64,000 nucleotides of DNA from Candidatus Gastranaerophilales bacterium (GTDB lineage Bacteria; Cyanobacteriota; Vampirovibrionia; Gastranaerophilales; Gastranaerophilaceae). The notes under the pieces were generated by a model. It worked only from the letters and a program-made list of their open reading frames with translations, had not been told where the DNA came from and ran no database searches. The stretch is taken from NCBI GenBank assembly GCA_947588785.1, contig CANPZN010000002.1:2123-66122 (forward strand), given 5' to 3'. Position numbers and translations under genes: made by a program. Positions 340 through 60,013 of the stretch are shown here, in pieces (the first letter of the stretch is position 1; each line of letters starts with the position of its first letter).

Positions 340-459
340 GAGTGACGGATTGAAAAGATTACAAAAAACATTTTCGAGCTTTAAGTCGTCAAAAAAACGG
401 AGTTTGAGCAACTATAAGGTTTATATAGGCAAGCAAAAAGTTGCGACATTGGATTAAAT
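340..459 (+). repeat. Copy R1 of the G+C-rich modular intergenic repeat family
   Basis: Modules GTGACGGATTGAAAA ... TTTATATAGGCAAG ... TTGCGACATTGGATTAAAT. The tail matches 58351-58387 and 24031-24049. Confidence 0.7.
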
Positions 460-478
460 AATCAAATATAGAAAAATT

Positions 479-507
479 AAATCCTTAATAATTTTTATTA
501 AGGATTT
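479..507. terminator. Bidirectional hairpin terminator between convergent genes
   Basis: Perfect 11-bp inverted repeat AAATCCTTAAT (479-489) / ATTAAGGATTT (497-507) with a 7-nt loop and A/T runs on both sides. It overlaps the uvrA stop codon. Confidence 0.6.
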
Positions 508-3332
508 TTTAACATTTTTTTTAGATATTGTCCGGTAAATGAATTTTTGACTTTTGCAACTTCTTCAGGTGTACCTTGAGCAACAATACTACCACCTTCA
601 TCTCCTCCTTGAGGCCCTAAATCAATTATATGATCGACGGTTTTAATTAAATCAAGATTATGTTCTATAATAAGGATAGTATTACCTGCGTCTGCAAGTT
701 TATTTATAATTTTAATTAGTTTGTCCAAATCATACCAATGAAGTCCGACAGTAGGTTCATCTAATAAGTATAAAGTTTTTCCTGTTGCACGTTTATTAAG
801 CTCACTGGCAAGTTTTATTCTTTGAGCTTCGCCACCTGAAAGTGTAGTTGCACTTTGACCAAGTTTCATATATCCCAACCCTACATCATTTAGTGTTTGA
901 AGTCTTGTTCTGATTTTAGGGATATTTTCAAAAAAATTAAGTGCTTCAGAAATAGTCATATCAAGAACTTCCGAGATATTTTTTCCGTTATATCTAACTT
1001 CAAGAGTTTCTCTGTTATATCTTTGTCCTTTGCAGACATTACATTTAATATAAACGTCAGAAAGGAAATTCATCTCAATTCTGGTTAAACCATCGCCTCC
1101 ACAGGCTTCACAACGACCTCCTTTTAGATTAAAACTGAATCTTCCAGCATTGTATCCCCTGACTTTGGCTTCCGGAGTTTTTGCAAATAACTCTCTAATA
1201 TATGTAAAGACATCTGTATATGTGGCCGGATTTGATCTTGGCGTTCTGCCTATTGGACTTTGGTCTATACATATTACTTTATCAATGTTTTCAAATCCGT
1301 CAATTCTATCTACTCCTTGAGGTTTTGGTTTATTTTTATTTAATTTATGGATGGAATATTGATAAATTATTTCATTCATTAATGTAGATTTTCCGCTTCC
1401 TGAAATTCCGGTTAAAGCAATAACTTTCCCGAGCGGGATATTAACATCAATATTTTTTAAATTATTTTTATATGCATTTTTAATTTCTAAATATTTTCCG
1501 TTGCCTTGTCGTCTTGTTGAAGGTATCGCAATATATTTTTCTCCGCTTAAATATTGACCCGTTATAGATTTTTTGCATTTTATTATATCTTCTAATGTAC
1601 CTTGTGCTATTATTTTACCTCCGTTAACACCGGCATATAATCCTATGTCCACAATATGATCCGCACTCCTTATTGTATCTTCATCATGTTCTACAACAAT
1701 AAGTGTGTTGCCAAGGTTTCTTAATCTTATAAGTGTTTTAATAAGCATATCATTGTTGTATTGATGTAAACCAATGGAAGGTTCATCTAAAACATATAAT
1801 ACACCGGATAACCCACTTCCTATTTGTGTCGCGAGTCTGATTCTTTGAGCTTCTCCGCCGGATAATGTGGATGCCATTCTCGCAAGATTTAGATAACTTA
1901 ATCCTACATCTAACATAAATTTAAGTCTGGCACTAATTTCTTCTAAGATCTGTTTCGCTATCGTTAATTTGTAATCATCTAATTCCAGATATAAATCTGA
2001 AAAAAACTTGTAACAGTCTTTTATTGATAATGTACATACTTCATAAATATTTTTTCCTCCGACAGTAACAGCAAGAGAAAATGGTTTTAATCTGGCTCCT
2101 TTACATTCATTACAAGGAATTTGCGACATGTATTCTTGAATTTGTCCTCTGATTTCATCAGAATTAGATTCTTCATATTTTTTCATAAAATAAGGAATTA
2201 CACCGGAAAATGGTCTGGTTTGAGTTATATATCTTGTTCCGCCAAATTCTTTAAATCTTAATTTTATGCAATCTTTTCCACTTCCATATAAAATGATATT
2301 TTTATGTTCTTCTGATAATTCTTCAAAAGGAGTATCTAAATTAATTCCATAGTGATTAGCTACTGATGATAAAATATCAATATAATATGGGTTCCCTGTT
2401 TTAGCCCAGGGATAAATAGCTCCTCCCTTTAAAGATTTTGTTTTATCCGGTATTAGAAGATCAGGATCCATTTCAAAATGTGCTCCAAGTCCTGAACAAG
2501 ACGGGCATGCTCCATAAGGATTATTGAAACTGAATATTCTTGGTGCTAATTCTTCAAAACTTAAATTACAATTGGGACATGCAAGTTTTTCACTAAAAAT
2601 CATTTCATTTGCACCAATAACATCGATAATTAATAATCCGTCTGATTTTTTTAGTGCTATTTGAGCAGAATCAGTAAGCCTTGATTTTGCACTTTCTTTA
2701 ATAACCAATCTATCAACAACAACTTCAATTGTATGTTTTTGCGTTTTATTCAGTTCGATTTCATCTTCATCTAAATTAAAAACTTTTCCGTCAACTCTTA
2801 CTCTTACAAAGCCTTCTTGTTTCAATTCGTTAAATAATGAAGAAAATTCACCTTTTTTCCCTCTGACCACAGGTGAAAGAATTTGAATTTTAGTACCTTC
2901 ACTTAATGTATATATTTTATCAACAATTTCATCAATGGATTGTGGTGCAATTTCACAACCACAATTGGGACAATGAGGAATACCTATTCTTGCATATAAC
3001 AGCCTAAGATAATCATATATTTCAGTTACAGTGCCGACTGTAGATCTCGGATTGTTGTTTGTTGATTTTTGATCTATGGAAATTGAAGGTGATAAGCCTT
3101 CAATGCTTTCAACGTCAGGTTTATCGAGTTGACCTAAAAATTGTCTTGCATAGTTTGAAAGACTTTCCACATACCTTCTTTGTCCTTCGGCAAAAATAGT
3201 ATCAAATGCAAGTGAGCTTTTTCCGGAACCTGAAATTCCCGTAAAAACTATAAGTTCATTTTTCGGTAATTCTAAACTTACATTTTTTAAATTATGTTGA
3301 TTTGCTTTTCTAATAATAATTTTATCGTTCAT
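498..3332 (-). CDS. uvrA: Excinuclease ABC subunit A
   Basis: 944 aa. Two ABC ATPase modules ([22 protein letters not shown], two LSGGEAQR signatures) and zinc-finger CxxC pairs. Confidence 0.97.
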
Positions 3333-3353
3333 AGTATTATTATGACATGAAAT

Positions 3354-5098: not shown

Positions 5099-5107
5099 AA
5101 ATTGTTT

Positions 5108-5140
5108 GCAGCCATATGGCTTACTGTGACAGGATTAAAT
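5108..5140 (+). repeat. Short fragment of the repeat family (palindrome plus GTGACAGGATTAAAT terminal module)
   Basis: AGCCATATGGCT palindrome (5110-5121) followed by GTGACAGGATTAAAT (5126-5140). Confidence 0.5.
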
Positions 5141-8661: not shown

Positions 8662-8714
8662 AGCCGCTTCAGAATTTCGCCTTCATTGAGAGCATGCGAA
8701 ATTTTTCAGACAAT
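8662..8714 (+). repeat. Repeat-family hairpin module (R3)
   Basis: AATTTCGC - 15 nt - GCGAAATT stem-loop, the same stem sequence as in R7, R9 and R15. Confidence 0.55.
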
Positions 8715-9377: not shown

Positions 9378-9397
9378 ATTTATTGTAAAATAATATT

Positions 9398-9482
9398 ATC
9401 CGAGAAAAAAATTCAATTTTGTAAGGATGTAAGAATAAAATTTTTTAGTGGACAGTTGAAAGGTTTGTGCCAAAAATTAAAT
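9398..9482 (+). repeat. Repeat-family copy (R4)
   Basis: TCCGAGAAAAAAATTC head and GTGGACAGTTGAAAGG...TGTGCCAAAAATTAAAT tail. Confidence 0.5.
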
Positions 9483-9508
9483 CATAAGGAGTTAAGAAGG
9501 AGATATAA

Positions 9509-11142: not shown

Positions 11143-11236
11143 TTGTCAGAAAAAGATTTTACTGAAAACAGTATAAGTAAGATTTTTTGAGTGGCGTATT
11201 AATATTGGACAGCTGAACTGTCAATACTGGATTAAA
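11143..11236 (+). repeat. Repeat-family copy (R5) immediately upstream of the sigma factor gene
   Basis: TTGTCAGAAAAAGATTTTAC head, GACAG-CTGAA-CTGTC hairpin, CTGGATTAAAT tail ending 8 nt before the ATG. Confidence 0.55.
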
Positions 11237-11244
11237 TTTAAAAA

Positions 11245-16792: not shown

Positions 16793-16927
16793 TGTCTAAG
16801 TTATAGTGTTGCACTTTGCAGCTGACTGTCTTTAAATTCGCCGTTTTTTGGGGCTTGTCATTCATAAGCGTTTGATCGACTTTGCCCGGCGTAATTTCTC
16901 TCCAATTCTAAAGTGGCAAAATTTCAT
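16792..16927 (-). repeat. Repeat-family copy (R6), inverted orientation
   Basis: Contains TGGGGCTTGTCAT (16849-16861), which equals the core at 25255-25267 and the reverse complement of 21306-21318. Confidence 0.7.
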
Positions 16928-17023
16928 CAAACATAGTCATGAGGAAAAAATATTGAAAATAATAATGTTGATTCCGTATTATTTTTATATTAGGCTTTTA
17001 TATGAATTAGAGGGAGAATATTT

Positions 17024-18121
17024 ATGTTAAGAGCGGGAATTGTAGGGCTACCAAATGTAGGAAAATCAACGTTATTTAATGCATTGACATCGTCCAAAAA
17101 TGCACAAAGTGAAAATTATCCCTTTTGTACTATAGAACCTAATGTAGGAGTGGTAAGTGTTCCTGATGAAAGATTAATGGTATTGAAAGATATAGTTAAA
17201 ACAAATGTAGTAATACCTACGGCAATTGAATTTGTAGATATAGCAGGACTGGTAAAGGGTGCAAGTAAAGGTGAAGGTCTTGGAAATCAATTCTTGCATA
17301 ATATTCGAGAAGTAGATGCAATTATTCAAGTAGTAAGATGTTTTGATGATGAAAATACAATTCATGTTTCCGGAAAAATAAATCCTATTGATGATATAGA
17401 AACAATAAATACCGAACTTGCATTAAGTGATATGGCATCAATCGAAAGACGAATAGAAAGATTAAATAAACAGGTTAAAAGCGGAGATAAACAAGCAATA
17501 TTGGAGCATAAAGTATTAACGAAATTGAATGATTTACTTTCAGATGCCATGTTTATAAACATAGAAGAACATTTTGAAGAAGAAGAACTTGAGATAGCGA
17601 GAGCGACACAGTTAATGTGTATAAAACCCGTAATATATGCGGCAAATGTTAGTGAAACTGATCTTGCCAAAGGAAATGCCTATGTAGATAAGGTAAAAGA
17701 ATATGCTTCAAAACACGGAGCGGATGTTGTTGTAATATCTGCAAAAATAGAAGCAGAATTAGTAGATTTATCCCAGGAGGAAGCAAAGGCATATTTATCT
17801 GATTTGGGCGTACAAAATTCCGGTATTGAAAGAATGATACAATCAGTGTATAAACTTTTAAAATTAACGACATTTATTACAGCAGGAGAAAAAGAGGTAA
17901 GAGCATGGACAGTAAAGGCAGGCTCAAAAGCACCCCAAGCAGCAGGAGTTATACATACTGATTTTGAAAAAGGATTCATAAGGGCAGAAGTTACAGCATA
18001 CAAAGATTTTGTAGAAGCAGGTTCTTATGCGGTTGCAAGGGATAAAGGATTAACTAGATTAGAAGGTAAGGATTATATAATACAAGATGGAGATATAGTT
18101 CATTTTAGATTTAATGTCTAA
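17024..18121 (+). CDS. ychF: Ribosome-binding ATPase YchF
   Basis: [19 protein letters not shown]-loop, [11 protein letters not shown]-terminal TGS-like [11 protein letters not shown]. Confidence 0.95.
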
Positions 18122-18159
18122 TATAAAAGATTTACTATAATAAAAAAATGTGATAATAT

Positions 18160-18275
18160 CTTTGTATAAAGCGAGGAAATAAGGTGAAAATCCTAAACCG
18201 GACCGCGGCCGTTATAGTCGGAATACTCTTGTTTAATTTAATTGCGGAATCCAATTAAATATATGAGAGTTCCTT
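18160..18275 (+). promoter_or_regulatory. Candidate compact cobalamin riboswitch (class II / AdoCbl-variant-like) plus downstream hairpin
   Basis: Ordered blocks AAAGCG-AGGAAA-(4 nt)-GGTGAAAATCC-(15 nt)-CCGTTATAGTCGGAAT. GTAT(18164)/ATAC(18223) can close a P1. Followed by the ATTTAATTG-CGGAATC-CAATTAAAT hairpin. Confidence 0.45.
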
Positions 18276-18380
18276 ACATAATCTTTAATGAGCGTGTTAA
18301 AAAATATGCTTATTAAAATAATACCAAAATACACGATCAAAAGAAGTTTGATTGTTGAGTAAAAAGCAGTAAGGAAAATT

Positions 18381-19100
18381 ATGTCAGTATCAGTCACAAG
18401 CCCAAACACACAAAGAGCAGGATTATGTCCGCATGGACTTCCTCCCGCTGCTTGTCCAATATGTAGCGGAAATGGAGGTATGGGAGGAACGGGACGAATA
18501 AAAAATACACCTCCTCCAAAATCAACTGTGTCAAATGAATGGTCATGGATGAAATGTTATACAGCCGGTTTAATGATGAAATCCCAACAAGATAGAATAG
18601 AATCGGCAAAACTTGATTTTAAACGGGAAATAGAATCATATAAATTGTTACAAAAAATGGTAGATGCACTTGCTGATAAAATAAAATCGAATTTAGAAAA
18701 TATACAAAATTCCCTACCAAAACCTATTTCAATTCCGTTGCAGATAATAACAAATTTTATAGTAAAACCAATATTAAATTTAATTTCACAACTGCCTAAA
18801 ATAATGGAAAATATTGCAAATTTCGGGCAAAATTTGCGGAATTTGATTCAACAGGCCGGTGAAAAATTAACAGCAGTAATAGGTGAAATGAAAAATTTTG
18901 TAAAAAGTAAAATTGAAGATATAAAGAAACGGGCAAAAAAAATTTTTTTGTTTTTTCTATCTGAAATAGAAGATAAAGATTATAAAAATGATGAATCATT
19001 AGAGGTCTTTAAATCAAGAGAGTTAAAAAAATATCTTTTAAAAATTATAAAAATGGTAAAGAAACAGGGTGAAAATGATACCGGAAACTCTGAAAAATAA
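18381..19100 (+). CDS. Hypothetical protein with N-terminal Cys/His knuckle
   Basis: CPHGLPPAACPICSG near the N-terminus, Gly-rich linker, helical K/E/I-rich remainder. Confidence 0.5.
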   Translation: MSVSVTSPNTQRAGLCPHGLPPAACPICSGNGGMGGTGRIKNTPPPKSTVSNEWSWMKCYTAGLMMKSQQDRIESAKLDFKREIESYKLLQKMVDALADKIKSNLENIQNSLPKPISIPLQIITNFIVKPILNLISQLPKIMENIANFGQNLRNLIQQAGEKLTAVIGEMKNFVKSKIEDIKKRAKKIFLFFLSEIEDKDYKNDESLEVFKSRELKKYLLKIIKMVKKQGENDTGNSEK

Positions 19101-20646
19101 ATACGATATTTTAAGAAATAATAGAAATATAGCTCAAGAAAAAATAAAAAATAAAGAATTAAATAAAACGCTAAAAAGTGTTTTAATAAATAATCATATA
19201 AAAAATACTAATGAAAATATATCATTTGACGAAATTCAAGATTCATTATTAATTACTGATTCATCATCTTATTATTTAAAAAAAGAAAAAGAAGAAGAAA
19301 ACGGCTTTAATGAAAATAATGCTTTGAAACCAATTATAACAGCAACCGGAATACTTTTTGCCGGAGTAATAACATTAAGCAGTATGATAAAATTATCATC
19401 AAAAAATTTATTAAAAACAATGAATTTTGAACAACTTCCCGAATTAGCAACGAATATGAACATAAAGGAAGAAACTCATTTCGCAATATATAGAGCAATA
19501 AGAGATCCAAATACCAAAAATATATTGGGAGCTGCAGCAGTTTTTTTAATGAGCGGAATAACAATTGCCGCTAAAAATTTTGTTGACGGAACAAAAGAAA
19601 TATGGTTAAAAAAACAAGCTGCAGATATAGAAAGAGATTTGCAAGAAAATTTAATAAAAGTTGAAACAGATTCTTTTTCCGGAAAATTAAATGTCGTAAA
19701 TGATATGTTAAATCAAAATATAAAATATTTTGATTCTGTTTTAAATAATAAAAAAATAAATTCTAAAAATTCACAAATATTTTCCGAAATAATTTCATTT
19801 AAAAGTGAACATTTGAACGGCGTTGAAAAATCAATAGCAGAAGGCGATGACATATTAAATCAAAATTCTGAAACAGAAGAAAAAAACAGAAAAGATAAAA
19901 AAAGAAATATAAAATATGGATTATTATTGCTAGGTGTACTTTTAGGAGCATATGTTACAGGAAAAATCAGTTTTAAAAATATAAAGAAAACAATCGAAAA
20001 TACGGAAAAATATGCTACAAATTATGTAGAAAAAACAATAGAAGCAATAGATATAATGAAAGAGAAATCAGATCCAAAAGATTTGCCTCGTATAAAAGAG
20101 CTGTTACAGGCAATTTGTGCAAAGCCCGAATATGTCAGAGAAATTGGTCAAAAATATAACTTGAGTGAAGAAGAAATAAGAGAAATAATAGAATCAGTAA
20201 AGGAAGTAAAAAAGACAATTTTTGCGGACGCCCCGACAGCATTAGGAGGAATACCCAAAAAAATTCAATATTATTGCTATATAGATGAAAACAGAGGTCA
20301 TTTATATAATTGGATTATGAATCCTGATAATAAATTTACAAAATATTTATTTATGTCTTGTACAATAGCAAGTTCAATAGGTTATATTTTTAAAGAAGGC
20401 ATGGATGCCATAAAAGAAGTAACGGTGTTAAAAGAGAATTCTAAAACAGAATTAAATTTAAGAAAAAGGTTGGTAGATGTAGAGATTTCTAATTTTAAAT
20501 CAAAGAAAAATAGTGCCATTAGACCATTGATTGAAGATTTTACAAAACAAGCGGAATCAGGTCAAAAAACAAAAGAAGAATTAAAAGTTATAGCAGATAA
20601 TATATTAACGGAGACTAAAAATGGCCCTCCGTATGTTTATACATAG
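19069..20646 (+). CDS. Hypothetical polytopic membrane protein
   Basis: 525 aa. Overlaps the upstream ORF by 32 nt. TM segments [46 protein letters not shown]. Confidence 0.55.
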   Translation: MKMIPETLKNKYDILRNNRNIAQEKIKNKELNKTLKSVLINNHIKNTNENISFDEIQDSLLITDSSSYYLKKEKEEENGFNENNALKPIITATGILFAGVITLSSMIKLSSKNLLKTMNFEQLPELATNMNIKEETHFAIYRAIRDPNTKNILGAAAVFLMSGITIAAKNFVDGTKEIWLKKQAADIERDLQENLIKVETDSFSGKLNVVNDMLNQNIKYFDSVLNNKKINSKNSQIFSEIISFKSEHLNGVEKSIAEGDDILNQNSETEEKNRKDKKRNIKYGLLLLGVLLGAYVTGKISFKNIKKTIENTEKYATNYVEKTIEAIDIMKEKSDPKDLPRIKELLQAICAKPEYVREIGQKYNLSEEEIREIIESVKEVKKTIFADAPTALGGIPKKIQYYCYIDENRGHLYNWIMNPDNKFTKYLFMSCTIASSIGYIFKEGMDAIKEVTVLKENSKTELNLRKRLVDVEISNFKSKKNSAIRPLIEDFTKQAESGQKTKEELKVIADNILTETKNGPPYVYT

Positions 20647-20656
20647 GGGATAGGCA

Positions 20657-21109
20657 ATGATAACATATAATCCTAATTTATATACACAAGTCGGACAATT
20701 GGGTATCGGTGTGGAAAAACCTAATAGTGTGAGAAATTATTGTGTCTTTGATAATAAAAGGACAGAAGAAATATTAAAATATAAAGAAGAAGCATTGCCT
20801 TATATAGATTCATTTTTAAAGACCGTAAATACGGAAGAACAAGTGTTAGATGCACTGCAAGTACTTGATAAAATGTTGGATAAAAAAGTAAAAGGAATTG
20901 AAAAAATGTATCCGACTTTATCAAGATTTAATGATGTAACATCTCCGAATATTCAAGTTATGCTTGCCGGAATATACAGAAAAACGTTAATACCTGATGC
21001 ATTTGGCCCATTAAATAAAATGTTAATCAGGCAGACATTATATCCTAATTCATTATATTTTGATCCGACTGAAGAGATAGGCGGGGCAATTATGGAATAT
21101 TTAATATAG
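20657..21109 (+). CDS. Hypothetical protein (150 aa)
   Basis: ORF 10 nt after the previous stop with a GGGGATAGG SD-like tract. Helical, no family recognised. Confidence 0.5.
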   Translation: MITYNPNLYTQVGQLGIGVEKPNSVRNYCVFDNKRTEEILKYKEEALPYIDSFLKTVNTEEQVLDALQVLDKMLDKKVKGIEKMYPTLSRFNDVTSPNIQVMLAGIYRKTLIPDAFGPLNKMLIRQTLYPNSLYFDPTEEIGGAIMEYLI

Positions 21110-21151
21110 TGATTTATGTTTCATATATTGGATAAAAATTAATATATAAAT

Positions 21152-21540
21152 TGGTGTGCCGAAACTAAACAAAATTGAATCAGAACAATCAGCCAGAATT
21201 TGTCCGAGAAAATTTTGCAATAAGTAACGTGAGCGAAATTTGAGAAAGGGTGAAACAAACCCGAGTAGCGAAGGGGCTGAAATGAGCGGCAGCGATAGCG
21301 AGCGAATGACAAGCCCCAAGACAGCAAATTTCAAGACAGCGAAATTTGCGAAAGGGTACCGGCAAATCCGGTTTAAAATTGGATTAACGGAATTTCGTAC
21401 AGCCAAAGGCGGACTGGCTTGTACGAAAGGGGATTTCAAGACAATTTAAATGAGTTAAACTAAACTTATAAAGTGCCACTGCACCAAACCCGAGAATGTG
21501 AGGGCAAAGGGAACACAAGGTTACGACACTAGGTTCAAAT
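21152..21540 (+). repeat. Composite array (R7) containing nearly every module of the repeat family
   Basis: About 390 bp of G+C-rich sequence in an AT-rich background. Sub-blocks recur at 16792-16927, 22924-23068, 23993-24051, 25233-25376, 29375-29585 and 36443-36542. Confidence 0.85.
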
Positions 21541-21629
21541 TTTTTAAACAAGATTCAAACATCTATAATTTGTAATAAATAAATATATTAAGGGAAAAAG
21601 AAAAAATATAATAAAATTTAAAATAAAAA

Positions 21630-21719
21630 CGGAGAAGGAGAGATTCGAACTCTCGGTGCAGATTACTCCACACAACACCTTAGCAGGGTGCCGCCTTAAA
21701 CCTACTCGGCCACTTCTCC
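21630..21719 (-). tRNA. tRNA-Ser (anticodon GCU)
   Basis: Manually folded. Acceptor GGAGAAG/CTTCTCC+G, anticodon loop CTGCTAA, about 20-nt variable arm, T-arm GAGAG-TTCGAAT-CTCTC. CCA is not encoded. Confidence 0.9.
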
Positions 21720-21843
21720 ACCAAAGTATGATTATACTAACATAAATATTACTTCAATACAAGTATAAAAATCTTAATATTAAAAACAAATATATAGATT
21801 TTATAATCTGGTTAAGATAATATGACATTGAGGATATGGTTTT

Positions 21844-22899
21844 ATGAAGATATATAATAATTTTAGCATTGGTAATATTGTGAAATACAATACCAGAAAA
21901 GTAGACAGCGTTCCTGCTTTAAAAATGGAAACAATACAAGATTCGTTTACGTTTAGCGGAAGGCAAAAATCGAGTAATGGCGAGTGGAGTGTAATTTATT
22001 CAATAAAAAAAGATCCGGAAAATTATCAAGAAAATATAAAAAAATTGCGTAAAATTGCAAGAAAAGGATTATATTCCGGAAGATTCGGAGCCGATAAAAC
22101 ATTGCAAAGATATGATTATCATGTTTTTATGGACTCACACAAAAAACCACTATTATTAATGAGAGTTTCAGGCAGAAATGTAAATGAAATAAGAAGTAAT
22201 AAAGATGGAACAATTGATGGCGAATATATAAATTTAATAAATGATTACATTGCTAAAAACAATTTAGTAACATCAGGTTCTGCAAGTATTGAAATGGAAA
22301 TTACTAATAATAGAACCGAAAGATTAAAAAAATATAAAAATGATTTGGCAGCTGCTATTCATGAAAATAATGTTGAAAGAATATTTCATTATTTCAATAT
22401 AAAAACAGATAAAGATTCAGAAGGAAATCTCAGTATTTCAGAATATAGGCAGCCGGATTGTGAAATTACATATAAAGATATTGGGATAGATGAAAGAAAT
22501 TTAGTTGAACATGTTGTCACGGTAGACGGTGACGCAGATTTTAGCAGAAGTTCTTTGGTAATACCCGGAGCAATTGAATATATAGGTGGAAATGCAAAAT
22601 TTACACATTCAAACATAATTCATTTGGGTAATATTGAAGTTATAGAAGGTGATGCGGATTTTAATGACTCAAAAGTTAAATATCTGTCAAAACTTGAGTA
22701 TATTGGCGGAAATGCAAACTTTAGAGGATCAAAAATAGTTTCACTTGAAAATTTGGAGCATATAGAAAATAATGCTTTCTTTAGAGAATCAGCAGTTTCT
22801 GATATAGGAAGATTAAATTATATAGGTGGTGATATTACATATATAAATTCACCGCTTACAAAGAAACATTTTATAAATGTAGCAAGAAGAGCAAAATAA
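21844..22899 (+). CDS. Leucine-rich-repeat protein (BspA-like about 22-aa repeats) with unknown N-terminal domain
   Basis: C-terminal tandem units IEYIGGNAKFTHSNIIHLGN / IEVIEGDADFNDSKVKYLSK / LEYIGGNANFRGSKIVSLEN and so on. Confidence 0.7.
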   Translation: MKIYNNFSIGNIVKYNTRKVDSVPALKMETIQDSFTFSGRQKSSNGEWSVIYSIKKDPENYQENIKKLRKIARKGLYSGRFGADKTLQRYDYHVFMDSHKKPLLLMRVSGRNVNEIRSNKDGTIDGEYINLINDYIAKNNLVTSGSASIEMEITNNRTERLKKYKNDLAAAIHENNVERIFHYFNIKTDKDSEGNLSISEYRQPDCEITYKDIGIDERNLVEHVVTVDGDADFSRSSLVIPGAIEYIGGNAKFTHSNIIHLGNIEVIEGDADFNDSKVKYLSKLEYIGGNANFRGSKIVSLENLEHIENNAFFRESAVSDIGRLNYIGGDITYINSPLTKKHFINVARRAK

Positions 22900-22923
22900 A
22901 AAAAAATGTATCAGGAGGCTATA

Positions 22924-23068
22924 CAAGCGAATTTTCCGTTGAATGCCAATAGAGCCGGTTTAAATTGGATTAGTTTCAAGATAAATATAAAAAACAAACC
23001 TATTTTAAATGTGCCGCTGAAACAACTTCAGGAATGGTTATTTGCAAATTGTGACCATCGGATTAATT
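22924..23068 (+). repeat. Repeat-family copy (R8)
   Basis: CCGGTTTAAATTGGATTA (22955-22972) matches 21368-21386. Ends in GTGACCATCGGATTAAT. Confidence 0.7.
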
Positions 23069-23971
23069 TATATGTTCATTATTTTGGATAAATAAATTAT
23101 CAGAGTCTGTTATTGTATCAGTTGTTATTGCTTTACAATCTAAATTAAGCATCTTATTTAATTGATTTTGTTCATTTACAGTCCAAGATTCAAAATCAAA
23201 ACCTGCATTCTCTATTAAATCGGATGTTTCTTCTGAAATTTTCGTATATTTAATATCTAAAAATACTTCATTTTTATCAGTTTTTAAATTATCTAAAATT
23301 TCTATAGTTTCATTATTCGGTTCAGTTTTGGAAAGATAACCGATTCTTGCCTCAGGCATAATATCATTAATAATTTTAAGATAGTCATTTTCAAAACTTA
23401 TCCAGGTAATATTATTTTCTAATCCTGCCTCTTTAACTTTATCAATAAGGATTTGTGCTTTTTCTCTATTAAAATCAGTTGATTCTTTCAAATCAACATA
23501 TAAATTAAGTCCATAATCTTTACAACAAGTCAATATTTCATTAAAAGTCGGAATTTTAGTTCCTTTATATTCTTTATTTTTCCATATTCCGAAATCATAT
23601 TTTTGCAATTCTTTAAAAGAACATTTTGAGCATTTTTTAGGAAATATAAATTTCCAACCGTTGGATTTTCTTGCAGTTCGATTAATGGTATCATCGTGTA
23701 ATAGAACGGGTACATTATCTTTTGTCCATTCAATATCGCATTCAACAGTTTTAAAACCTGCTTCTGCGGCTGCGATATATGCAGGGATAGTGTTTTCAGG
23801 AGCAATTGAGCTTAGTCCTCTATGGGCAATTAATTCTATTGAATCATTAATTTTATCTGTTTGAATATTGGATTGTTCCTGATTATCATAAGTTTCATTA
23901 TTCAATAGATTGTTGAAGTAAATCTTTTGCGGATTATAAATAGGTAAATTGACTATACTCTCAAATGACAT
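23063..23971 (-). CDS. Glycerophosphodiester phosphodiesterase family protein
   Basis: IAHRGLSSIAPENT...ECDIEWTKDNVPVLLHDDTINRT (GDPD HRG/ENT/E.D/HD motifs). Confidence 0.88.
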   Translation of the reverse strand: MSFESIVNLPIYNPQKIYFNNLLNNETYDNQEQSNIQTDKINDSIELIAHRGLSSIAPENTIPAYIAAAEAGFKTVECDIEWTKDNVPVLLHDDTINRTARKSNGWKFIFPKKCSKCSFKELQKYDFGIWKNKEYKGTKIPTFNEILTCCKDYGLNLYVDLKESTDFNREKAQILIDKVKEAGLENNITWISFENDYLKIINDIMPEARIGYLSKTEPNNETIEILDNLKTDKNEVFLDIKYTKISEETSDLIENAGFDFESWTVNEQNQLNKMLNLDCKAITTDTITDSDNLFIQNNEHIN

Positions 23972-23992
23972 ATTGACATATCCCGTTTAAAT

Positions 23993-24051
23993 TGTCTGAG
24001 AAAATTTCGCAATAATGAACGTGAACGAAATTTTGCGACACTAGATTAAAT
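23993..24051 (+). repeat. Repeat-family copy (R9): hairpin module plus terminal module
   Basis: TGTCTGAGAAAATTTCGCAATAATGAACGTGAACGAAATTTTGCGACACTAGATTAAAT with a 9-bp stem AAAATTTCG/CGAAATTTT. Confidence 0.75.
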
Positions 24052-24139
24052 ATATAAAAAAATTTTTTAGATAAAAATTGATTTATATAAATAAAATTGA
24101 AAAAAAATTTACAAATCAAACCTTTGAATTGTGTCTAGT

Positions 24140-25291
24140 CTAAAAATCAAAATTTAATTCTTGCTGAATGTTTAAAGAACCAAGGTTAAAGCATTTACAA
24201 GCAAAAGGAGTTAATTTTCTACCCCGTGGTGTCCTTTGAATAAAACCTTTTTGAAGTAAATAAGGTTCATAAACATCTTCAATAGTTTTTGAATCTTCCC
24301 CTAAAGCGGTAGCAATAGTTTCAATTCCAACGGGGCCTCCATTGTATTTATTTGCAATTAAATTAATAAGGCTGCGATCAGTATTATCAAGTCCGTATTT
24401 ATCAATTTGCAAAATATCAAGTGATTGATTAGCTAATTTTTCATTAATAAATCCATTTGATTTTACAATCGCATAATCTCTTACTCGCTTAACTAAACGA
24501 TTAGCAATTCTTGGAGTACCTCTTGATCTTTTTGCAATAGCATAAGCTCCATTTTCATCAATTTCAATTTCTAATATTTGAGCAGTTCTTTTTATAACTT
24601 TTGCAAGTTCATCTTCAGTATAAAATTCAAGTCGATGAATAATTCCAAATCTGTCTCTTAACGGGCCGGATAAAGAACCTGCTTTTGTAGTAGCACCAAT
24701 AAGCGTAAATTTGGGAATGGGAATTCTAATTGATTTCAAAGTTTGAGCTTTACCTGTAGTCATATCTAAATAAAAATCTTCCATAGCCGGATATAAAATT
24801 TCTTCAGATATTTTGTTTAATCTGTGTATTTCATCTATAAATAAAATATCACCTGCTTTTAATGCCATTAAAATACCAATGATATCTCTGGGGCGTTCAA
24901 AAGAAGGTGCAGATGTAATTTTTATATTAGCATTCATCTCAGTAGCGATAACAGAAGCAAGAGTAGTTTTTCCTAATCCTGGCGGGCCGTAAAATAATAT
25001 GTGATCCAGAGGAAGTTCTCTCTTCTTCGCAGCTTCAATAGATATTTTTAAAGTCGACTTTAATGAACTTTGTCCAACATAATCATCAAAATGTTTCGGT
25101 CTTATAGTAGATTCAAAAGATGTATCAAAAGGAATGTGTTCAGATGTTGTATCTTCATTTTTTAACTTTTCAAATTTATTATTATCATCATCTGAAATTA
25201 TAGCCACGGGTTCTTCTTTCTTATTTGTGCTTGCTGTCTTGAAATTTGCTGTCTTGGGGCTTGTCATTCGCTCGCTATTGCTGCCGCTCAT
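24140..25291 (-). CDS. ruvB: Holliday junction branch-migration helicase RuvB
   Basis: [28 protein letters not shown], and a C-terminal winged helix. The annotated ATG and first ~20 codons lie inside repeat R10; an alternative GTG start is possible at 25207. Confidence 0.95.
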
Positions 25292-25376
25292 TTCAGCCCC
25301 TTAGCTACTCGGGTTCACTTTGTTTCACCCTTTCGCAAATTTCGCTCTCTTTCCGAACCAACAAAATTTTCTCGGA
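25233..25376 (-). repeat. Repeat-family copy (R10), inverted partner of 21203-21340
   Basis: Hand alignment: the reverse complement of 25233-25313 equals 21260-21340 with 2 mismatches in 81 nt. The outer part shares TCCGAGAAAATTTTG and AGCGAAATTTG.GAAAGGGTGAAACAAA. Confidence 0.9.
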
Positions 25377-25498
25377 TATAATAATATAATAACATTCATA
25401 AAATTTTTAGGAAATAAGTTAATAATTTCTTTTTTTAATACTAATTTATATTTCTTTAATTTATAATATAATCAAAAGAGCATGAGAGGTATTTAAGA

Positions 25499-27855: not shown

Positions 27856-27869
27856 ATTATCAATGTTAA

Positions 27870-27963
27870 CAGAGTGAAAATAGAGTGTATTTAAAAACTG
27901 TGTAACATTGTGCGTTAATGGCACCGTATTAAATCAAGACGGTAAAGGAAATTCTGGGGCATT
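27870..27963 (+). repeat. Repeat-family copy (R11)
   Basis: CTGTGTAACATTGTGCG...AATGGCACCGTATTAAAT...GGAAATTCTGGGGC modules between convergent genes. Confidence 0.5.
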
Positions 27964-27966
27964 GAA

Positions 27967-29679: not shown

Positions 29680-29692
29680 TTTTCACCATTTG

Positions 29693-29971
29693 TTATTTCA
29701 ATTTTTTTAGTAATAAAATACCTATAGTTGAAATAAGTCCCATTTTAAAAATATTATTGAGTTTTATTTTTTTCTTTTCATTAGATTTATAATTTGTATA
29801 TTTAAATTCATCTCTGATTTGTTTATTTTCTTTGAGAGCATTGTTTAATGAATATTTCGGCAGGGCTTGAGCCACTGTAATATTATTGTAAGACGCTTTA
29901 CCTTTGAAGAAATTTTGAGTATCGTCGATGTTATTAATATTGATAGATTGGGAATTTATTAAATTAGTCAT
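29693..29971 (-). CDS. Small tail-anchored membrane protein
   Basis: Start moved to MTNLINS (GGAG 6 nt upstream). C-terminal TM MGLISTIGILLL flanked by Lys. Confidence 0.5.
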   Translation of the reverse strand: MTNLINSQSININNIDDTQNFFKGKASYNNITVAQALPKYSLNNALKENKQIRDEFKYTNYKSNEKKKIKLNNIFKMGLISTIGILLLKKLK

Positions 29972-34125: not shown

Positions 34126-34163
34126 TAAGTAAAAAAATAATTTTTGTTGTATAATTTTATGAT

Positions 34164-34190
34164 CATACCCGAGAAATTTTCTCGGGTATG
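34164..34190 (+). terminator. Perfect palindromic hairpin after the GH13-like gene
   Basis: CATACCCGAGAAA-T-TTTCTCGGGTATG. The core CCGAGAAAATTTTCTCGG is a palindromised version of the repeat head TCCGAGAAAATTTT. Confidence 0.65.
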
Positions 34191-34310
34191 GTTTGATATA
34201 ACTATGAAAATAAATATTATGATAAGAACTGAAAAATTCAAGTTGCTTATGGAAAAATTTTTATTGATAAATTAAAATAAAAGTTAATTATAAAGAAAAA
34301 GGATATAAAT

Positions 34311-36442: not shown

Positions 36443-36542
36443 ATTTAATACAGTGTAGCAATCGTAAAGTTATCGGATACAGGCTTACTCGCTTCAAGTG
36501 TTCGCTGCTTTGTAACGTTCCTTATTGCAAAATTTTCTCTGA
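36443..36542 (-). repeat. Repeat-family copy (R13), inverted orientation
   Basis: The reverse complement reads CAGAGAAAATTTTGCAATAAGGAACGTTACAAAGC...GCTACACTGTATTAAAT. Shares GGATACAGGCT with R12. Confidence 0.75.
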
Positions 36543-36564
36543 TGTATAAATAATGAAATCGAGT

Positions 36565-48066: not shown

Positions 48067-49039
48067 TTATAACTCTAACTTTTTACTTAAAAATGGAACT
48101 ATTATATCCCAAGCTTCAGAAGATGGATGTGAATTATCTTCAATCCAATATTTATCTTCTTTGTTTAGATTAGGGAGTTCTTTATTAATATCTATAAAAA
48201 TTATATCGTTATTTTCTTTTTTTAAATTATTAATTTCATTATTATATATATTTTCTTGATCTAATGGGCAAGGATAATATAAAATTACCATTTTTGCATT
48301 TGGAAAATTATTTTTTATTTCTTTATAAGATTCAGAAATTAATTTTGTTAAAAGATTATTTCTTATTTTTTGATTTTCGGCAGATTTTTTTGCTATAAAT
48401 TCTTCAATAACTATGGATGTAAAAAATGAATGAATAAAAGGAAATAATAATTTATCTTGTATTAATTCGTTATTTTTGATTTTATATCTTAATGTATGAT
48501 CACCTGTCATAACCCAGTTTCTATATCTGAATAATCTTGGAATGTGATCCGGAATCATTGTAAATATTATATATTCTGCATTCTTTGGCAGTTCATTTAA
48601 AATCTCTTTATCTTTTAATTGGTAATACATAAATGGAATTCCTGTTCCGGATCTTCCTCTGTTTATTACAGTTCTGTTTGTATAATCAGATAATTTTTTT
48701 GAAAAAGTTTCATTTCTGTTTAATCCAAATCCATATGTGTAGGAACAACCAAAAAGTATTATCGGTTTTTTATTTGTTTTTTTATATTCTATGGGTCTAA
48801 AGTCAGAAGTTAAATTTTGTTTATCTGGTGTTGTAACTTTTGCGTACCCTATAAATGGAGATGGTTTTTTATTTATACCCCCCCCCCATTGTATTTTTTG
48901 AAATATTTTTATAATTAATTATATCTTCTTTGTATTTAAAACATAATGAGAGATATGATGCAAATTCTATTATGATTAGAATTAAAACTATTGCTGTTAT
49001 ATTGATTATTATTAATTTAATTTGTTTATGATTATTCAT
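48067..49039 (-). pseudogene. Membrane-anchored SGNH/GDSL-like hydrolase paralogue, frame-shifted at a C10 tract (candidate phase-variable gene)
   Basis: An ATG at 49039 (ATGA overlap with the upstream stop) gives MNNHKQIKLIIINITAIVLILIIIEF..NTMGGGYK*. The frame of the 48067-48630 ORF is open up to 48918 and encodes RPIEYKKTNKKPIILFGCSYTYG, homologous to the neighbour. The total of 973 nt is not a multiple of 3. Confidence 0.65.
48878..48887. repeat. C10 (G10 on the coding strand) homopolymer
   Basis: Counted directly: ...tttata CCCCCCCCCC attgta... No comparably long G/C run was noticed elsewhere in this AT-rich window. Confidence 0.9.
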
Positions 49040-49989
49040 TTATTTGTATTCAATTCCAGTTTTTTTGATATCTCGGGAACTAAAATATCCCAGGCTTGTG
49101 TTGAGGGATGTCCATCAAACATCCAATATTTATTTTCTTTTAATTGAGGACATAATTCTAAAGAATCAAGTATTATTATGTCTTTATTTTTTTCTTTTAC
49201 TTTTTTTAAATCATTGATATTAAATTTCCCATCATCTTCTCTAGAATCAAAAATATCATACATGTATAAAATCACAAATTTGGAATTCGGAAATTTTGTT
49301 TTAATGATTTTATAAATTTCTTCAATATATTTATAAAATAAATTATAAGTTTTTTTTGTATCATGTATTTGTATTAAATAAATATAGTTTTCAAGCAATG
49401 CTTTTATGTAGAAATAATTAAAAATAGAAAAAATATTTTTATTAGAATCAATAAATTCTAATTTGTTATTATGTAATTTATATCTTGTTATATAGAAATA
49501 GGATAATTCACAATTTCTAAATCTAAAAGATCTCTCAATATGATCAGGAATAAATGTATATATAAAATATTCCGTATCTGAAGGAAATCTGTTTAATATT
49601 TCATCATCAGTTAATTGTCTATATATTTCCCCGAGTCCTTCGCCGCAAATACCTCGATTTATTACTGTTTTATTCGTATAATTTGCAAGTTTGTATGAAA
49701 ATGTTTCATTATCTTTTAATCTGTTTCCGTGTGTAAAAGAATCACCTAAAAGAATAATAGGTTTTTTCTGAGAACTGCGATATTCTATAGGTCTCATTTC
49801 TCCTTCAAATTCTTCTTTTCCCGGAACGTAACAGCTTTTATGATTTAAATAATATTTAATTTTATTTATTTTAACTTCATTTTCAAATAAATTAATATTT
49901 TTATTAAATGCAATAAGAAAAGACACCCATTCCAGTACCATTATAAGTATTAGCATTATTAAAATATTTATTAATATTATTTTTTTCAT
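49036..49989 (-). CDS. Membrane-anchored SGNH/GDSL-like hydrolase
   Basis: N-terminal TM, block I ILLGDSFTHG, block V-like DGHPS. Paralogue of the downstream gene. Confidence 0.62.
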   Translation of the reverse strand: MKKIILINILIMLILIMVLEWVSFLIAFNKNINLFENEVKINKIKYYLNHKSCYVPGKEEFEGEMRPIEYRSSQKKPIILLGDSFTHGNRLKDNETFSYKLANYTNKTVINRGICGEGLGEIYRQLTDDEILNRFPSDTEYFIYTFIPDHIERSFRFRNCELSYFYITRYKLHNNKLEFIDSNKNIFSIFNYFYIKALLENYIYLIQIHDTKKTYNLFYKYIEEIYKIIKTKFPNSKFVILYMYDIFDSREDDGKFNINDLKKVKEKNKDIIILDSLELCPQLKENKYWMFDGHPSTQAWDILVPEISKKLELNTNK

Positions 49990-54529: not shown

Positions 54530-54628
54530 TGCCCGGGAATGATCTTCGAAAATTTTTCTTATTCACTATTGTGAACAACGAATGAAATTTCAAGATAATC
54601 TTTGATAAAGTGTGGCACCGAATTAAAT
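54530..54628 (+). repeat. Repeat-family copy (R14)
   Basis: CTTCGAAAATTTTTC...GAATGAAATTTCAAG...GTGTGGCACCGAATTAAAT. Confidence 0.55.
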
Positions 54629-54633
54629 ATTTT

Positions 54634-58252: not shown

Positions 58253-58321
58253 AACTTCATCATGTATTTTACAATAAAATTTTATATTATTGTATAATTT
58301 ATAATGACATAGAAATTTAAA

Positions 58322-58387
58322 AGAAAATTTTGCGATAGGAAAAGTAAGCGAAATTTATATAGGCAAAGTGCGGTAATGGATAAATTA
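58322..58387 (+). repeat. Repeat-family copy (R15)
   Basis: AGAAAATTTTGCGATAGGAAAAGTAAGCGAAATTTATATAGGCAAAGTGCGGTAATGGATAAATT. Confidence 0.7.
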
Positions 58388-58412
58388 ATCATAGATTACG
58401 GAAGGTTTAAGC

Positions 58413-59396
58413 GTGGAAATTATACAACAAACAACGATGCAGGAATTAGCCAGAGAGGTTTTTCAAATTGAGTCTGATTCGATACTTAAATTGAAAGATA
58501 GAATTGATAGCAATTTAGAGAAAGCTATTTCTGTAATTATAGGCTCAAAAGGAAGAATAATAGTTACAGGTATGGGAAAATCAGGGTTAATCGGGCGAAA
58601 AATAGCAGCTACATTATCTTCTACCGGTACACCTGCCTATTTTCTTCATCCTGCGGAAAGTACACACGGTGATTCCGGAATAATAACAAGAGATGATGTT
58701 GTTATTGCTATTTCCAATAGCGGTGAAACAACAGAACTTTTAAATTTATTACCTTTAATAAAAAGATTTGAAGTTCCATTAATAGCTTTTGCCGGAAATA
58801 AAAATTCTACATTGGGAAAATGTGCAGATATTTATTTTGATATATCTGTGGAGAAAGAAGCATGTCCATTGGGAAAAGCTCCAACAGCAAGTACAACTGC
58901 GACATTAGCTATGGGTGATGCACTTGCGATATGTTTATTAAAAAAGAGAGGATTTTCAACGGAAGATTTTCTTTTATATCATCCATCTGGTACTTTAGGT
59001 AAAGGTGTATTATATATGGTGAAAGACCTTATGTTAAAAGATACAAATCTTCTTCCGATTGCACATGAAGAAGATACCTTCTTAGAAACTGTAGATTTAA
59101 TTTCCAAAAAGCGTCTTGGTTGTGCATTAATAGTAGATTCTCAAAATAAATTGACAGGATTAATAACAGATGGTGATATAAGAAGAATACTTTTAAGATA
59201 TCCTGATATATCTGTTTTAAGAACGAAATTTGTAATGACAAAAAATCCGAAAACAATATCATCGGAAGATATGGCTTCAAAAGCTCTTGCTTTAATGGAA
59301 AAGTATTCTATTACATCTCTGGCGGTTTGTGATGAAGATGATTGTCCTATAGGGTTAATACACATTCATGATTTATTAAGGGCAGGTGTTGCATAG
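58413..59396 (+). CDS. kdsD: Arabinose-5-phosphate isomerase (KdsD/KpsF)
   Basis: SIS domain (GMGKSG, SNSGET) plus two CBS domains. GTG start. Confidence 0.9.
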   Translation: MEIIQQTTMQELAREVFQIESDSILKLKDRIDSNLEKAISVIIGSKGRIIVTGMGKSGLIGRKIAATLSSTGTPAYFLHPAESTHGDSGIITRDDVVIAISNSGETTELLNLLPLIKRFEVPLIAFAGNKNSTLGKCADIYFDISVEKEACPLGKAPTASTTATLAMGDALAICLLKKRGFSTEDFLLYHPSGTLGKGVLYMVKDLMLKDTNLLPIAHEEDTFLETVDLISKKRLGCALIVDSQNKLTGLITDGDIRRILLRYPDISVLRTKFVMTKNPKTISSEDMASKALALMEKYSITSLAVCDEDDCPIGLIHIHDLLRAGVA

Positions 59397-59911
59397 TGAA
59401 AAATCAAGAAGTAGAAACAAATGCAATGAAAATAAAAATGGCTGTATTTGATGTTGATGGAGTCATGACTGACGGAAGTATTACTTATGATGAGAATGGT
59501 GTAGAATATAAAACATTTAATGCAAAAGATGGACAAGGTATTGTTATGCTTACAAAAGCAGGAATAATAACCGCAATAATAACTGCAAGAGAGAGCGGAA
59601 CAGTAAAAAAAAGATTTGAAAATCTTGGTATGACCAGACTTTTTATGGGACAAAAAAATAAAATTAAGGCACTTGATACATTAATTCAAGAATATAAAAT
59701 TGATTATTCTCAGGTTGCTTATATGGGGGATGATTTGCCTGATTTATGTGTTTTAGAAAAAGTCGGTTTGGCTTGTTGTCCAAGTGATGCTGTTGATGAA
59801 GTAAAAAATGTATGTAATTTTATATCTTCTAAAAACGGAGGAAGAGGAGCTGTAAGAGAATTAACGGATTTGATTTTTAAGGTACAAAAATTATCTGAAA
59901 AAAAATTATAA
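59396..59911 (+). CDS. kdsC: KDO-8-phosphate phosphatase (HAD family)
   Basis: FDVDGVMTDG, GDDLPD, position after kdsD. Start could be the GTG at 59396 or the ATG at 59426. Confidence 0.85.
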   Translation: MKNQEVETNAMKIKMAVFDVDGVMTDGSITYDENGVEYKTFNAKDGQGIVMLTKAGIITAIITARESGTVKKRFENLGMTRLFMGQKNKIKALDTLIQEYKIDYSQVAYMGDDLPDLCVLEKVGLACCPSDAVDEVKNVCNFISSKNGGRGAVRELTDLIFKVQKLSEKKL

Positions 59912-59929
59912 TCGAATATATGAAATATT

Positions 59930-60013
59930 TATCTGCATTTGACATACAACACTTAGAAATAAGTTGCCGATGAATGAACAAAGGAAAACGTTATAATGTA
60001 AAGTGTAACATTA
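59930..60013 (+). repeat. Repeat-family copy (R16)
   Basis: GGAAAACGTTATAATGTAAAGTGTAACATTAAAT parallels the reverse complement of R13, GGAACGTTACAAAGC...CTACACTGTATTAAAT. Confidence 0.5.

Follow-up and report, generated by a model that had tools for sequence, protein, structure and literature searches.

The described systems closest to the repeat reported here are the enterobacterial repetitive intergenic consensus sequences or intergenic repeat units (ERIC/IRU), the BOX elements of Streptococcus pneumoniae, the Rickettsia palindromic elements (RPEs), the palindrome-associated transposable elements (PATEs) of the IS200/IS605 type with the repetitive extragenic palindromes (REP/REPIN) and their REP-associated tyrosine transposases (RAYT), and the Correia (NEMIS) elements of Neisseria and other miniature inverted-repeat transposable elements (MITEs). 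Our repeat is a structured unit that recurs, whole or in part, in a 64,000-nt stretch of DNA from a Candidatus Gastranaerophilales bacterium (contig CANPZN010000002.1, positions 2,123 to 66,122), referred to below as the window, where it forms a dispersed repeat family.

ERIC/IRU elements resemble it in size (a unit of ∼110-130 nt), in their imperfect hairpins with structure-preserving compensatory changes, in lying in either orientation in short, mostly transcribed spacers, in having no known associated transposase, and in forming longer variants through 60-70-nt insertions at fixed internal sites. They differ in sequence and in host phylum, and ERIC is one long imperfect palindrome, whereas our unit joins two dissimilar hairpins by a linker, ends in a fixed 3′ tail and shows a clear preference for TAWWT on its left flank. 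BOX elements (boxA-boxB(n)-boxC) likewise combine a constant head and tail with variable internal modules, have a strong predicted secondary structure and are non-autonomous. However, BOX elements repeat boxB in tandem and have partial complementarity between boxA and boxC, whilst the head and tail of our unit do not pair and its modules are different hairpins nested at several points. The RPEs of Rickettsia offer a parallel for small palindromic repeats inserted in frame into coding sequence, as in the one window case, which adds ∼87 residues near the N-terminus of a conserved protein; the likeness is limited to this single in-frame case, the host lineage is unrelated and no likeness in sequence is apparent.

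IS200/IS605 PATEs and REP/REPIN-RAYT systems share with our unit the lack of terminal inverted repeats and of target-site duplications, and insertion 3′ of a short specific sequence. As in IS608 and ISDra2, the hairpins lie close to both ends (∼8 nt away on the left, ∼9-10 nt on the right), and one strand folds. In contrast to the similar end hairpins of IS200/IS605 elements, which one TnpA recognises, the head of our unit has a 14-nt loop on an A/T-rich stem of 10 bp and its second hairpin is long, G+C-rich and irregular, with no similarity between the two; unlike REP/RAYT repeats, its head starts with TGTCCGAG and has no GTAG-type REP head, and the units are single rather than inverted doublets. 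Correia elements and MITEs are also abundant repeats of ∼100-150 bp near genes, some of them between promoter and gene, but our unit lacks the 26-bp terminal inverted repeats and the TA duplication of Correia elements. The repeat lacks defining features of MITEs with terminal inverted repeats and of REP/RAYT elements, and in its behaviour comes nearest to ERIC, BOX, RPE and IS200/IS605-derived elements. It is apparently a new family of a known kind, and we found no repeat family described in Gastranaerophilales.

A repeat family in the window and in related genomes

The window has a G+C content of ∼30% and carries housekeeping and flagellar genes (for UvrA, RuvB, GatA, FlhA, FlhB, FliE/F/H/I, KdsD, TopA, DprA and CysRS) and one tRNA-Ser. 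The best relatives of its RuvB are 87% identical, and the named ones come from Candidatus Gastranaerophilales metagenome-assembled genomes (MAGs). One protein of the window is matched at 100% identity by an ENA record. Three species with RuvB 85-87% identical to that of the window (L001, L114 and L116; L-numbers label comparison loci from other genomes) are syntenic with it over the block 24140-35753.

The original prediction had described at least 17 copies or fragments of a mosaic repeat, assembled from six modules and present in almost every longer intergenic spacer. All six modules are indeed where it had placed them, with one reservation for module d, whose match at 21368 was found but whose copy at 22955 is one indel off, leaving a single ungapped match. 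Exact 11- to 16-mers of the modules occur 50-200 times more often than expected: module b (AAACCCGAGWA) has three exact matches against 0.06 expected, module c (ATGACAAGCCCCA) three against 0.04, and module e (GGATACAGGCT) two against 0.01. With at most one mismatch, the head 13-mer GAGAAAATTTTGC is found at 21206, 23998 and 58321 and, on the minus strand, at 25361 and 36527, with one coding match at 12005. Self-BLAST of the window returned the inverted pair 21203-21340 / 25376-25233, 144 nt at 88% identity with an 83-nt core at 98%, although most of its long matches are A/T-rich noise.

Other parts of the prediction fared less well. The tail word GGATTAAAT alone is at chance level (four seen, 3.07 expected), the head proposed at 9399 (E ∼4) and the copy proposed at 59990 are not significant with the models, and the G+C island at 18162-18236 is likely to be a cobalamin riboswitch instead. 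Only ∼12-16 of the 26 spacers of at least 60 nt hold a copy. Most copies are intergenic, as had been claimed; the copy at 29314-29581, which includes modules b and e, lies in coding sequence.

We built a covariance model (R1) and nhmmer profiles exclusively from copies of other genomes, leaving out those of the window. Nine window copies were recovered by these models, which excludes chance matches as the source of this core set. Our own count is nine robust copies, three supported and about three weak ones; the multi-copy family stands, and the 17 proposed are slightly too many.

To place the family outside the window, species-representative genomes were scanned for the pattern GAGAAAATTTYG-N14-22-CGAAATTT, which gave at least 109 matching stretches. 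About half of these lie in Gastranaerophilales MAGs, nearly all with a 36-nt span, and continue into the common downstream sequence of the unit. The same repeat is in this way found, in multiple copies, in at least 14 other Gastranaerophilales species. Since copies were gathered by an exact head pattern, the invariance of the head among them is partly built in. Head matches in other phyla (Rhizobium, Anabaena and others) are followed by unrelated sequence and were set aside as chance. The R1 scores reach 146 bits, and dozens of near-identical 111-nt units occur in other MAGs. Subfamilies, defined by the stem of the second hairpin, are mostly genome-specific, two genomes having two each, as expected of bursts from master copies. 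The window has its own young subfamily: its copies at 21201-21540 and 25222-25378 are 93% identical over 115 nt, and the modules common to the two are specific to the window lineage and absent from the compared MAG loci.

No head-pattern match was found among IMG/VR viral contigs, and only four among JGI metagenome contigs, with off-size spacing and chance-like. In the MAGs represented by L014, L025, L048 and L105, copies lie at contig ends. Two true copies come from bins or loci of other assignment, L053 3126-3241 (binned as Muribaculaceae; 109 bits) and L093 5888-5953 (58 bits); both are probably binning errors of Gastranaerophilales contigs. A locus in an Elusimicrobia bin (L052) looks related by eye and is not significant.

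The absence of a described counterpart, also claimed at the outset, was borne out. Rfam gave no match to the repeat at gathering score, none on the canonical copy up to E = 5 and none across 18100-25500 at E up to 1, and full-text literature searches found no description of it. The Rfam comparison did find a guanidine-I riboswitch (86.8 bits) at L042 862-958 (-), ∼100 nt from a repeat copy in a Gastranaerophilales MAG.

Architecture, fold and insertion sites of the unit

The canonical unit of ∼111 nt consists of a head hairpin, the linker CTTTAAAA, a second hairpin and the tail GCGACACTAGATTAGAT. Its consensus reads tGTCC GAG AAAATTTCGC GATAAGGAACGTGA GCGAAATTTT (T/G)GAGTGGC on the left and A-CTTTAAAA GGTGAGC-stem-GATGA-stem-GCGACACT (A/G)GATTAGAT on the right. 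Both hairpins were predicted by RNAalifold from 28 copies. In the head, TGTCC pairs with G.GGCA and is followed by a 10-bp stem, AAAATTTCGC/GCGAAATTTT, which encloses a conserved 14-nt loop; G6.A45 and A7.G44 are probable tandem G.A pairs. The second hairpin extends from GGTGAGC to GCGACACT. Its stems are wholly different between subfamilies (for example GCACTTGTACGGCGAC, GCAACTTTACGGTTGC, GCCGCTGCACGGCGGC, ACAATTGCCGGCTGC and CCCCAATTTTTCGGTGAC) yet remain paired, and its internal ACGG/GCGG mismatches and GATGA-type loop are conserved. After it comes the fixed tail of ∼9-10 nt, ending in TA(G/A)AT. In the consensus, one reading frame of the unit (frame 1) is open through all 37 codons.

The pairing is well above that of controls. 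Paired cells amount to 96.6%, against 35-51% when the partner is slid; nine pairs are changed on both sides, against 0-4 in the slid controls; and 56 cells are changed on both sides, against 0-6 in the slid controls and a mean of 17.4 in shuffles. The covariation score was reached by none of 500 shuffles. The head keeps its pairing across diverged copies, as had been predicted, with AAAAAGATTTTAC/GTAAGATTTTTT in the window copy at 11144 and AAAAATTCG/CGAATTTTT in L088.

The two strands do not fold equally well. The predicted energies are -23.9 kcal/mol for the top and -17.4 kcal/mol for the bottom strand as DNA, and -38.6 and -27.2 kcal/mol as RNA, the top strand using G.T/U wobbles. On these calculations one strand of the unit is the folding strand, with RNA and single-stranded DNA not discriminated. 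The T.G pair of the head had been taken as workable only for a plus-sense RNA. That one strand folds, and that the top folds better, agrees with our result, but the restriction to RNA is too strong: hairpins of single-stranded DNA accept G.T wobbles too, and the T.G pair is therefore no proof of RNA. Moreover, the four window copies with the T of this pair are one local subfamily, not four independent observations.

The copies are mosaics, as originally described, because hairpin modules nest at a few fixed points of the canonical unit; the long copies are this unit plus nested modules. The first point is AAAAG|GTGAGC (L011, L015, L091 and L096), where the module holds the AAACCCGAG of module b, and the second is AAAAGGT|TAC (L060, L066 and L097). 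A third lies in the loop of the second hairpin (L059 and L079), and a fourth in the head loop, at AACGT|TAC (L074 and window 36443-36544), and this accounts for module e. Short copies have arisen by internal deletion, down to head and tail (window 23993-24052 and 58318-58385; L074, L093 and L094). In L109, L011, L074 and L097 the 14-nt head loop is the exact or near reverse complement between unchanged arms, a DNA-level flip of the kind produced by template switching or recombination at palindromes.

The unit has no terminal inverted repeats: the left end TGTCCGAGAAAATTT and the reverse complement of the right end, ATCTAATCTAGTGTCGC, have only an internal TGTC in common. Across 42 distinct copies, the five bases preceding TGTCC follow the pattern T(29) A(38) W W T(28), with conservation ending at -6. 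The right end is TA(G/A/T)(A/G/T)T, with a boundary uncertain by ∼2 nt. This pentamer is constant within a subfamily whilst the left flank varies independently of it, and it therefore belongs to the element rather than to a duplication. The few exact matches between left and right (L056 TAGAC, L078 TAGAT and TAAAT in the window) were accordingly discarded as target duplications and are coincidences of a common preference. Many insertions lie where an upstream stop codon provides TAA-AT (L036/L045) or just past a -10-like box (ruvB of the window).

Empty sites came from the ruvB-anchored loci; joined-flank BLAST among the pattern-gathered loci returned only filled orthologues. The gatA-ruvB spacer is 115-118 nt long in L001, L114 and L116, and in the window it carries an insert of ∼155 nt between the -10-like TATATTA and the ribosome-binding site. 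The 111-nt spacer at 27856-27966 is absent from the same three species, where the convergent gene ends abut. In the open reading frame (ORF) 27967-29679(-), the conserved N-terminus MKIxxS is followed by ∼87 element-encoded residues in frame, an insert that none of the nine aligned homologues has (481-499 aa; the window protein has 570 aa). The frame used there is frame 1 of the unit, whose openness lets such a copy survive within a gene. A second in-frame candidate, 19799-19860 (nhmmer E = 0.02-0.04), was rejected, as its TTTAAAAG codes for a conserved SFKG motif and every homologue has a variable linker in this region.

Copies and other loci of the window

The composite copy at 21201-21540 (+) is the longest, with 340 nt comprising the head, hairpin modules b, c and d and the tail GTTACGACACTAGGTTCAAAT; it contains an internal duplication of GCGAAATTTG.GAAAGGGT (nhmmer head E = 1.5e-11; R1 E = 2.5e-5). 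Its inverted counterpart at 25222-25378 (-) is co-oriented with ruvB and lies between the -10-like TATATTA and the ruvB ribosome-binding site (nhmmer head E = 6.6e-6; R1 E = 0.015 for 25378-25302). The 383-codon 'ruvB' ORF at 24140-25291(-) is a false 5′ extension over this repeat, the real start being the GTG near 25201, which gives a protein of ∼353 aa. The minimal copy at 23993-24052 (+), TGTCTGAGAAAATTTCGC..ACGAAATTTTGCGACACTAGATTAAATA, has head and tail only and is antisense to both genes flanking it (R1 E = 8e-8; nhmmer head E = 5e-11, tail E = 3.7e-5). At 58318-58385 (+), the head is joined to GGCAAAGTGCGGTAATGGATAAAT with the second hairpin deleted (R1 E = 7e-3 for 58325-58356; nhmmer E = 2.5e-5), and kdsD follows 27 nt downstream in the same orientation.

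The full architecture is seen at 11144-11238 (+), which has the compensatory change in its head stem noted above, a short second hairpin (GACAG..CTGTC) and the tail TGGATTAAAT (R1 E = 4.5e-4); the start of a sigma-factor gene lies 6 nt past its end. At 343-460 (+), between the end of a plus-strand ORF and the 3′ end of uvrA, a degenerate head is followed by a second hairpin and the tail GTTGCGACATTGGATTAAATA (R1 E = 1.2e-3; nhmmer P2/tail 405-459 E = 5e-3, tail-only 438-459 E = 5e-3). Only the head, CAGAATTTCGC..GCGAAATTTTTCAG, is present at 8663-8711 (+). Here R1 gave E = 0.05-0.34 and the nhmmer head profile E = 7e-3 for the match 8711-8663, this copy being matched on both strands because its hairpin is palindromic.

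Two further robust copies lie on the minus strand. The one at 36443-36544 (-), between convergent genes, has the exact 13-mer head, a TTACAAA...GCCTGTATCC module in place of the 3′ arm of the head, and the tail GCTACACTGTATTAAAT (nhmmer head 36541-36514 E = 3.9e-4); its module and insertion point recur in L074, L059 and L060. The copy at 29314-29581 (-), inside the coding sequence 27967-29679(-), consists of the linker and the start of the second hairpin, modules b and e and the tail GTCGTGACACTAAATTAAAT, with a degenerate head upstream. It was matched at 29573-29529 (nhmmer E = 5.5e-9) and is 95% identical over 40 nt to copies of other MAGs.

The three supported copies are assigned to the family through exact 14- to 16-mers in common with it or as insertions that related species lack. 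At 16793-16930 (-), module c GAATGACAAGCCCCAA, an exact 16-mer common to 21304 and 25255, is accompanied by the tail-like CAAAGTGCAACACTATAACTTAGAC (nhmmer tail E = 0.19). The fragment at 22910-22975 (+) contains the 14-mer AGCGAATTTTCCGT, common to the coding-sequence copy, and shares CCGGTTTAAA(A)TTGGATTA with 21368. At 27870-27935 (+) there is a degenerate remnant of the post-head and tail parts, GAGTGTATTTAAAAACTGTG...GGCACCGTATTAAAT, which lies in the 111-nt spacer missing from the three related species, has a 16-mer similarity to 54613 and is below significance with the models. Weak candidates are 9397-9483 (+), with CCGAGAAAAAAATTC... and the tail-like AAAATTAAAT (R1 E = 4.6, insignificant); 54543-54629 (+), with the tail-like GTGGCACCGAATTAAAT (R1 E = 4.3) and a 16-mer common to 27919; and 5099-5140 (+), recognised by eye only, in which the small hairpin GCAGCCATATGGCT precedes TGTGACAGGATTAAAT and GGATTAAAT is exact.

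A perfect palindrome, CATACCCGAGAAATTTTCTCGGGTATG, is found at 34157-34229, after an amylase-like gene. It has the CCGAGAAA of the head motif and is possibly a hairpin derived from the head, or else a terminator; the spacer that holds it is 185 nt long in the window and 73 nt in L001.

Three other loci of the window are recorded here. The island at 18162-18236(+) matches the AdoCbl-II-like riboswitch with 32.8 bits (E = 8.9e-5), under the gathering score of 36.5, and lies upstream of ORFs 18381-19100 and 19069-20646, both without Pfam hits. At 48067-49039(-) there is a paralogue of the GDSL-like gene 49036-49989, with 61% identity over ∼1 kb. It is split into ORFs of 56 and 187 aa right after a run of ten C near 48880 (ten G on the coding strand), which may point to phase variation or to an error in the assembly. 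Finally, ORF 21844-22899(+) matches nothing in Pfam or NCBIfam; at 22579-22851 it has three tandem repeats of 120 nt, in frame and 73-79% identical to one another.

Origin and significance of the repeat

We consider it probable, with moderate confidence, that the repeats are non-autonomous mobile DNA elements specific to Gastranaerophilales (Melainabacteria/Vampirovibrionia). The original prediction had likewise placed them with the non-autonomous REP-, Correia-, RPE- or MITE-like mosaic families, and the lineage-specific insertions, the occurrence in at least 14 other species and the lack of an enzyme gene in the window are in keeping with this. An enzyme encoded elsewhere would move the repeat in trans. 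Roughly half of the weight that we give to mobile elements goes to an HUH-type single-strand mechanism. The form we prefer is 'peel and paste' HUH/Y1 transposition, IS200/IS605-like or RAYT-like, because of the strand asymmetry, the hairpins near the ends, the insertion 3′ of a target without duplication and the target-like right end. The copies themselves show that the element inserts 3′ of a TAWWT-like site without duplicating it, grows as further hairpin modules land at fixed internal points, and shrinks by internal deletion. They face either way relative to genes, with a slight, 2:1 preference for the orientation of the downstream gene (34 against 17 by crude gene calls), and this, like the reverse-complemented head loops, speaks for an element that behaves as DNA.

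Several observations weigh against such elements. As the prediction had stated, none of the main ORFs of at least 100 aa in the window has a transposase, integrase or RAYT domain. Outside the window we examined 387 kb of Gastranaerophilales loci. Neither they nor the window hold a RAYT (Y1) gene flanked by repeats of this family, the 387 kb contain no head...gene...tail arrangement, and the loci examined contain no tnpA/tnpB element with matching ends. No guide tetranucleotides complementary to the cleavage sites were found, and the left and right hairpins are dissimilar, unlike the ends of IS608 and ISDra2. The only Y1 gene seen, that of L001, was rejected as the mobiliser, since the REP on its flanks is unrelated and tblastn with it matched none of the other loci. 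Lastly, at two orthologous sites the element is better conserved than its flanks (116/118 against 88% in L036/L045, and 71/71 against 85% in L055/L048). This is not expected of an insert that is purely selfish and decaying, and would call for gene conversion among copies or selection at the level of the host, either of which could be responsible. In the closer species pair L056/L025, element (∼96%) and flank (96.5%) are alike.

The L001 gene itself, at 20230-20763, encodes a 177-aa Y1_Tnp (RAYT-like) protein and has GTAGGTTGGG...CCCAACCTAC palindromes on both sides. It and the GTAGGTTGGG REP are a classical REP-RAYT pair, unrelated in sequence to the repeat studied here.

The best of the alternatives, though we think it unlikely, is that the repeat is a functional structured RNA spread by transposition or duplication, either a module of untranslated regions (UTRs) acting on mRNA stability or translation, or a guide RNA such as the omega RNA of TnpB/IscB. 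Compensatory changes keep both hairpins, but this covariation is equally expected of a single-stranded DNA substrate. Also in favour of an RNA are the conserved internal non-Watson-Crick motifs and loops (tandem GA, ACGG/GCGG and GATGA), the far better folding of the G.U-rich top strand, and extra stem-loops at fixed tolerant points, which resemble RNA expansion segments; the two orthologous copies that are better conserved than their coding flanks would also fit. On the other hand, the reverse complementation of the head loop would alter an RNA loop completely, the element has no conserved promoter or terminator and a variable upstream flank, Rfam gives no match, and no TnpB or IscB gene was seen.

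The gene context cuts both ways. By crude ORF calls all of 58 copies are intergenic except the one coding case. The tail often ends less than 40 nt from a start codon, which together with the co-orientation of the downstream gene (34/51) suits an RNA. However, one copy in three opposes the gene downstream of it and 11 are antisense to both neighbours, and relative to the upstream gene 24 copies have the same orientation and 28 the opposite one. The 2:1 bias is weak and is not the signature of an obligate cis-regulatory RNA. Nor do the downstream genes ruvB, tag, tyrS, kdsD and that of the sigma factor have a common theme, and a regulon was rejected. A portable structured RNA, in the sense of an omega-RNA-like guide scaffold or UTR module whose 3′ tail abuts host sequence, which the host or a TnpB/IscB-like partner maintains at orthologous sites in different species and whose modules are expansion segments, we hold to be more doubtful still.

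Slightly further down the scale, and in our judgement improbable, are domesticated duplex sites for a protein, comparable to the sites for gyrase or IHF in REP and bacterial interspersed mosaic elements or the promoters borne by Correia elements, in which the head repeat and its 14-bp spacer would be an operator serving nucleoid organisation or gene regulation. The near-invariance of the head arms and loop, whilst the stems of the second hairpin drift, is what such a site would require, although part of it stems from the exact-pattern sampling. Inversion of the loop preserves a double-stranded site, many copies are promoter-proximal, and the conservation of orthologous copies would also follow. 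Against this, the diverged heads of the window keep their pairing and not their sequence, which points to a folded strand; the second hairpin is conserved in structure only; and no candidate binding protein is known. Mobile elements, a structured RNA and duplex sites are not mutually exclusive. Chance similarity of low-complexity, A+T-rich intergenic DNA, which would account for the insignificant claims at 9399, 5099, 54543 and 59990, for the frequency of the isolated tail word and for the A/T-rich self-BLAST noise, has a negligible claim on the rest, given nine copies recovered by other-genome models at E 5e-11 to 7e-3, the excess of exact words and the near-identical units of other MAGs.

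Whichever way it spread, the repeat bears on the genomes of a group of gut bacteria related to cyanobacteria, uncultured and represented by MAGs alone. It is dense, with at least nine copies in the 64 kb of the window. It has consequences for annotation: gene calls are over-extended into the G+C-richer, stop-poor repeats, as at the 5′ end of ruvB, and ∼87 residues have been added to one protein. The repeat also supplies strain and species markers and, if the two copies in other bins are mis-binned, could act as a lineage marker in bin curation. Its asymmetric, hairpin-ended, TAWWT-targeting and nested design makes it a clean test case in the search for a single-strand transposase or for a role as RNA. 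It would represent a new kind of biology only if the interpretation as an RNA or guide is true, namely a network for regulation or homing that is based on RNA and spans this lineage of non-photosynthetic relatives of cyanobacteria.

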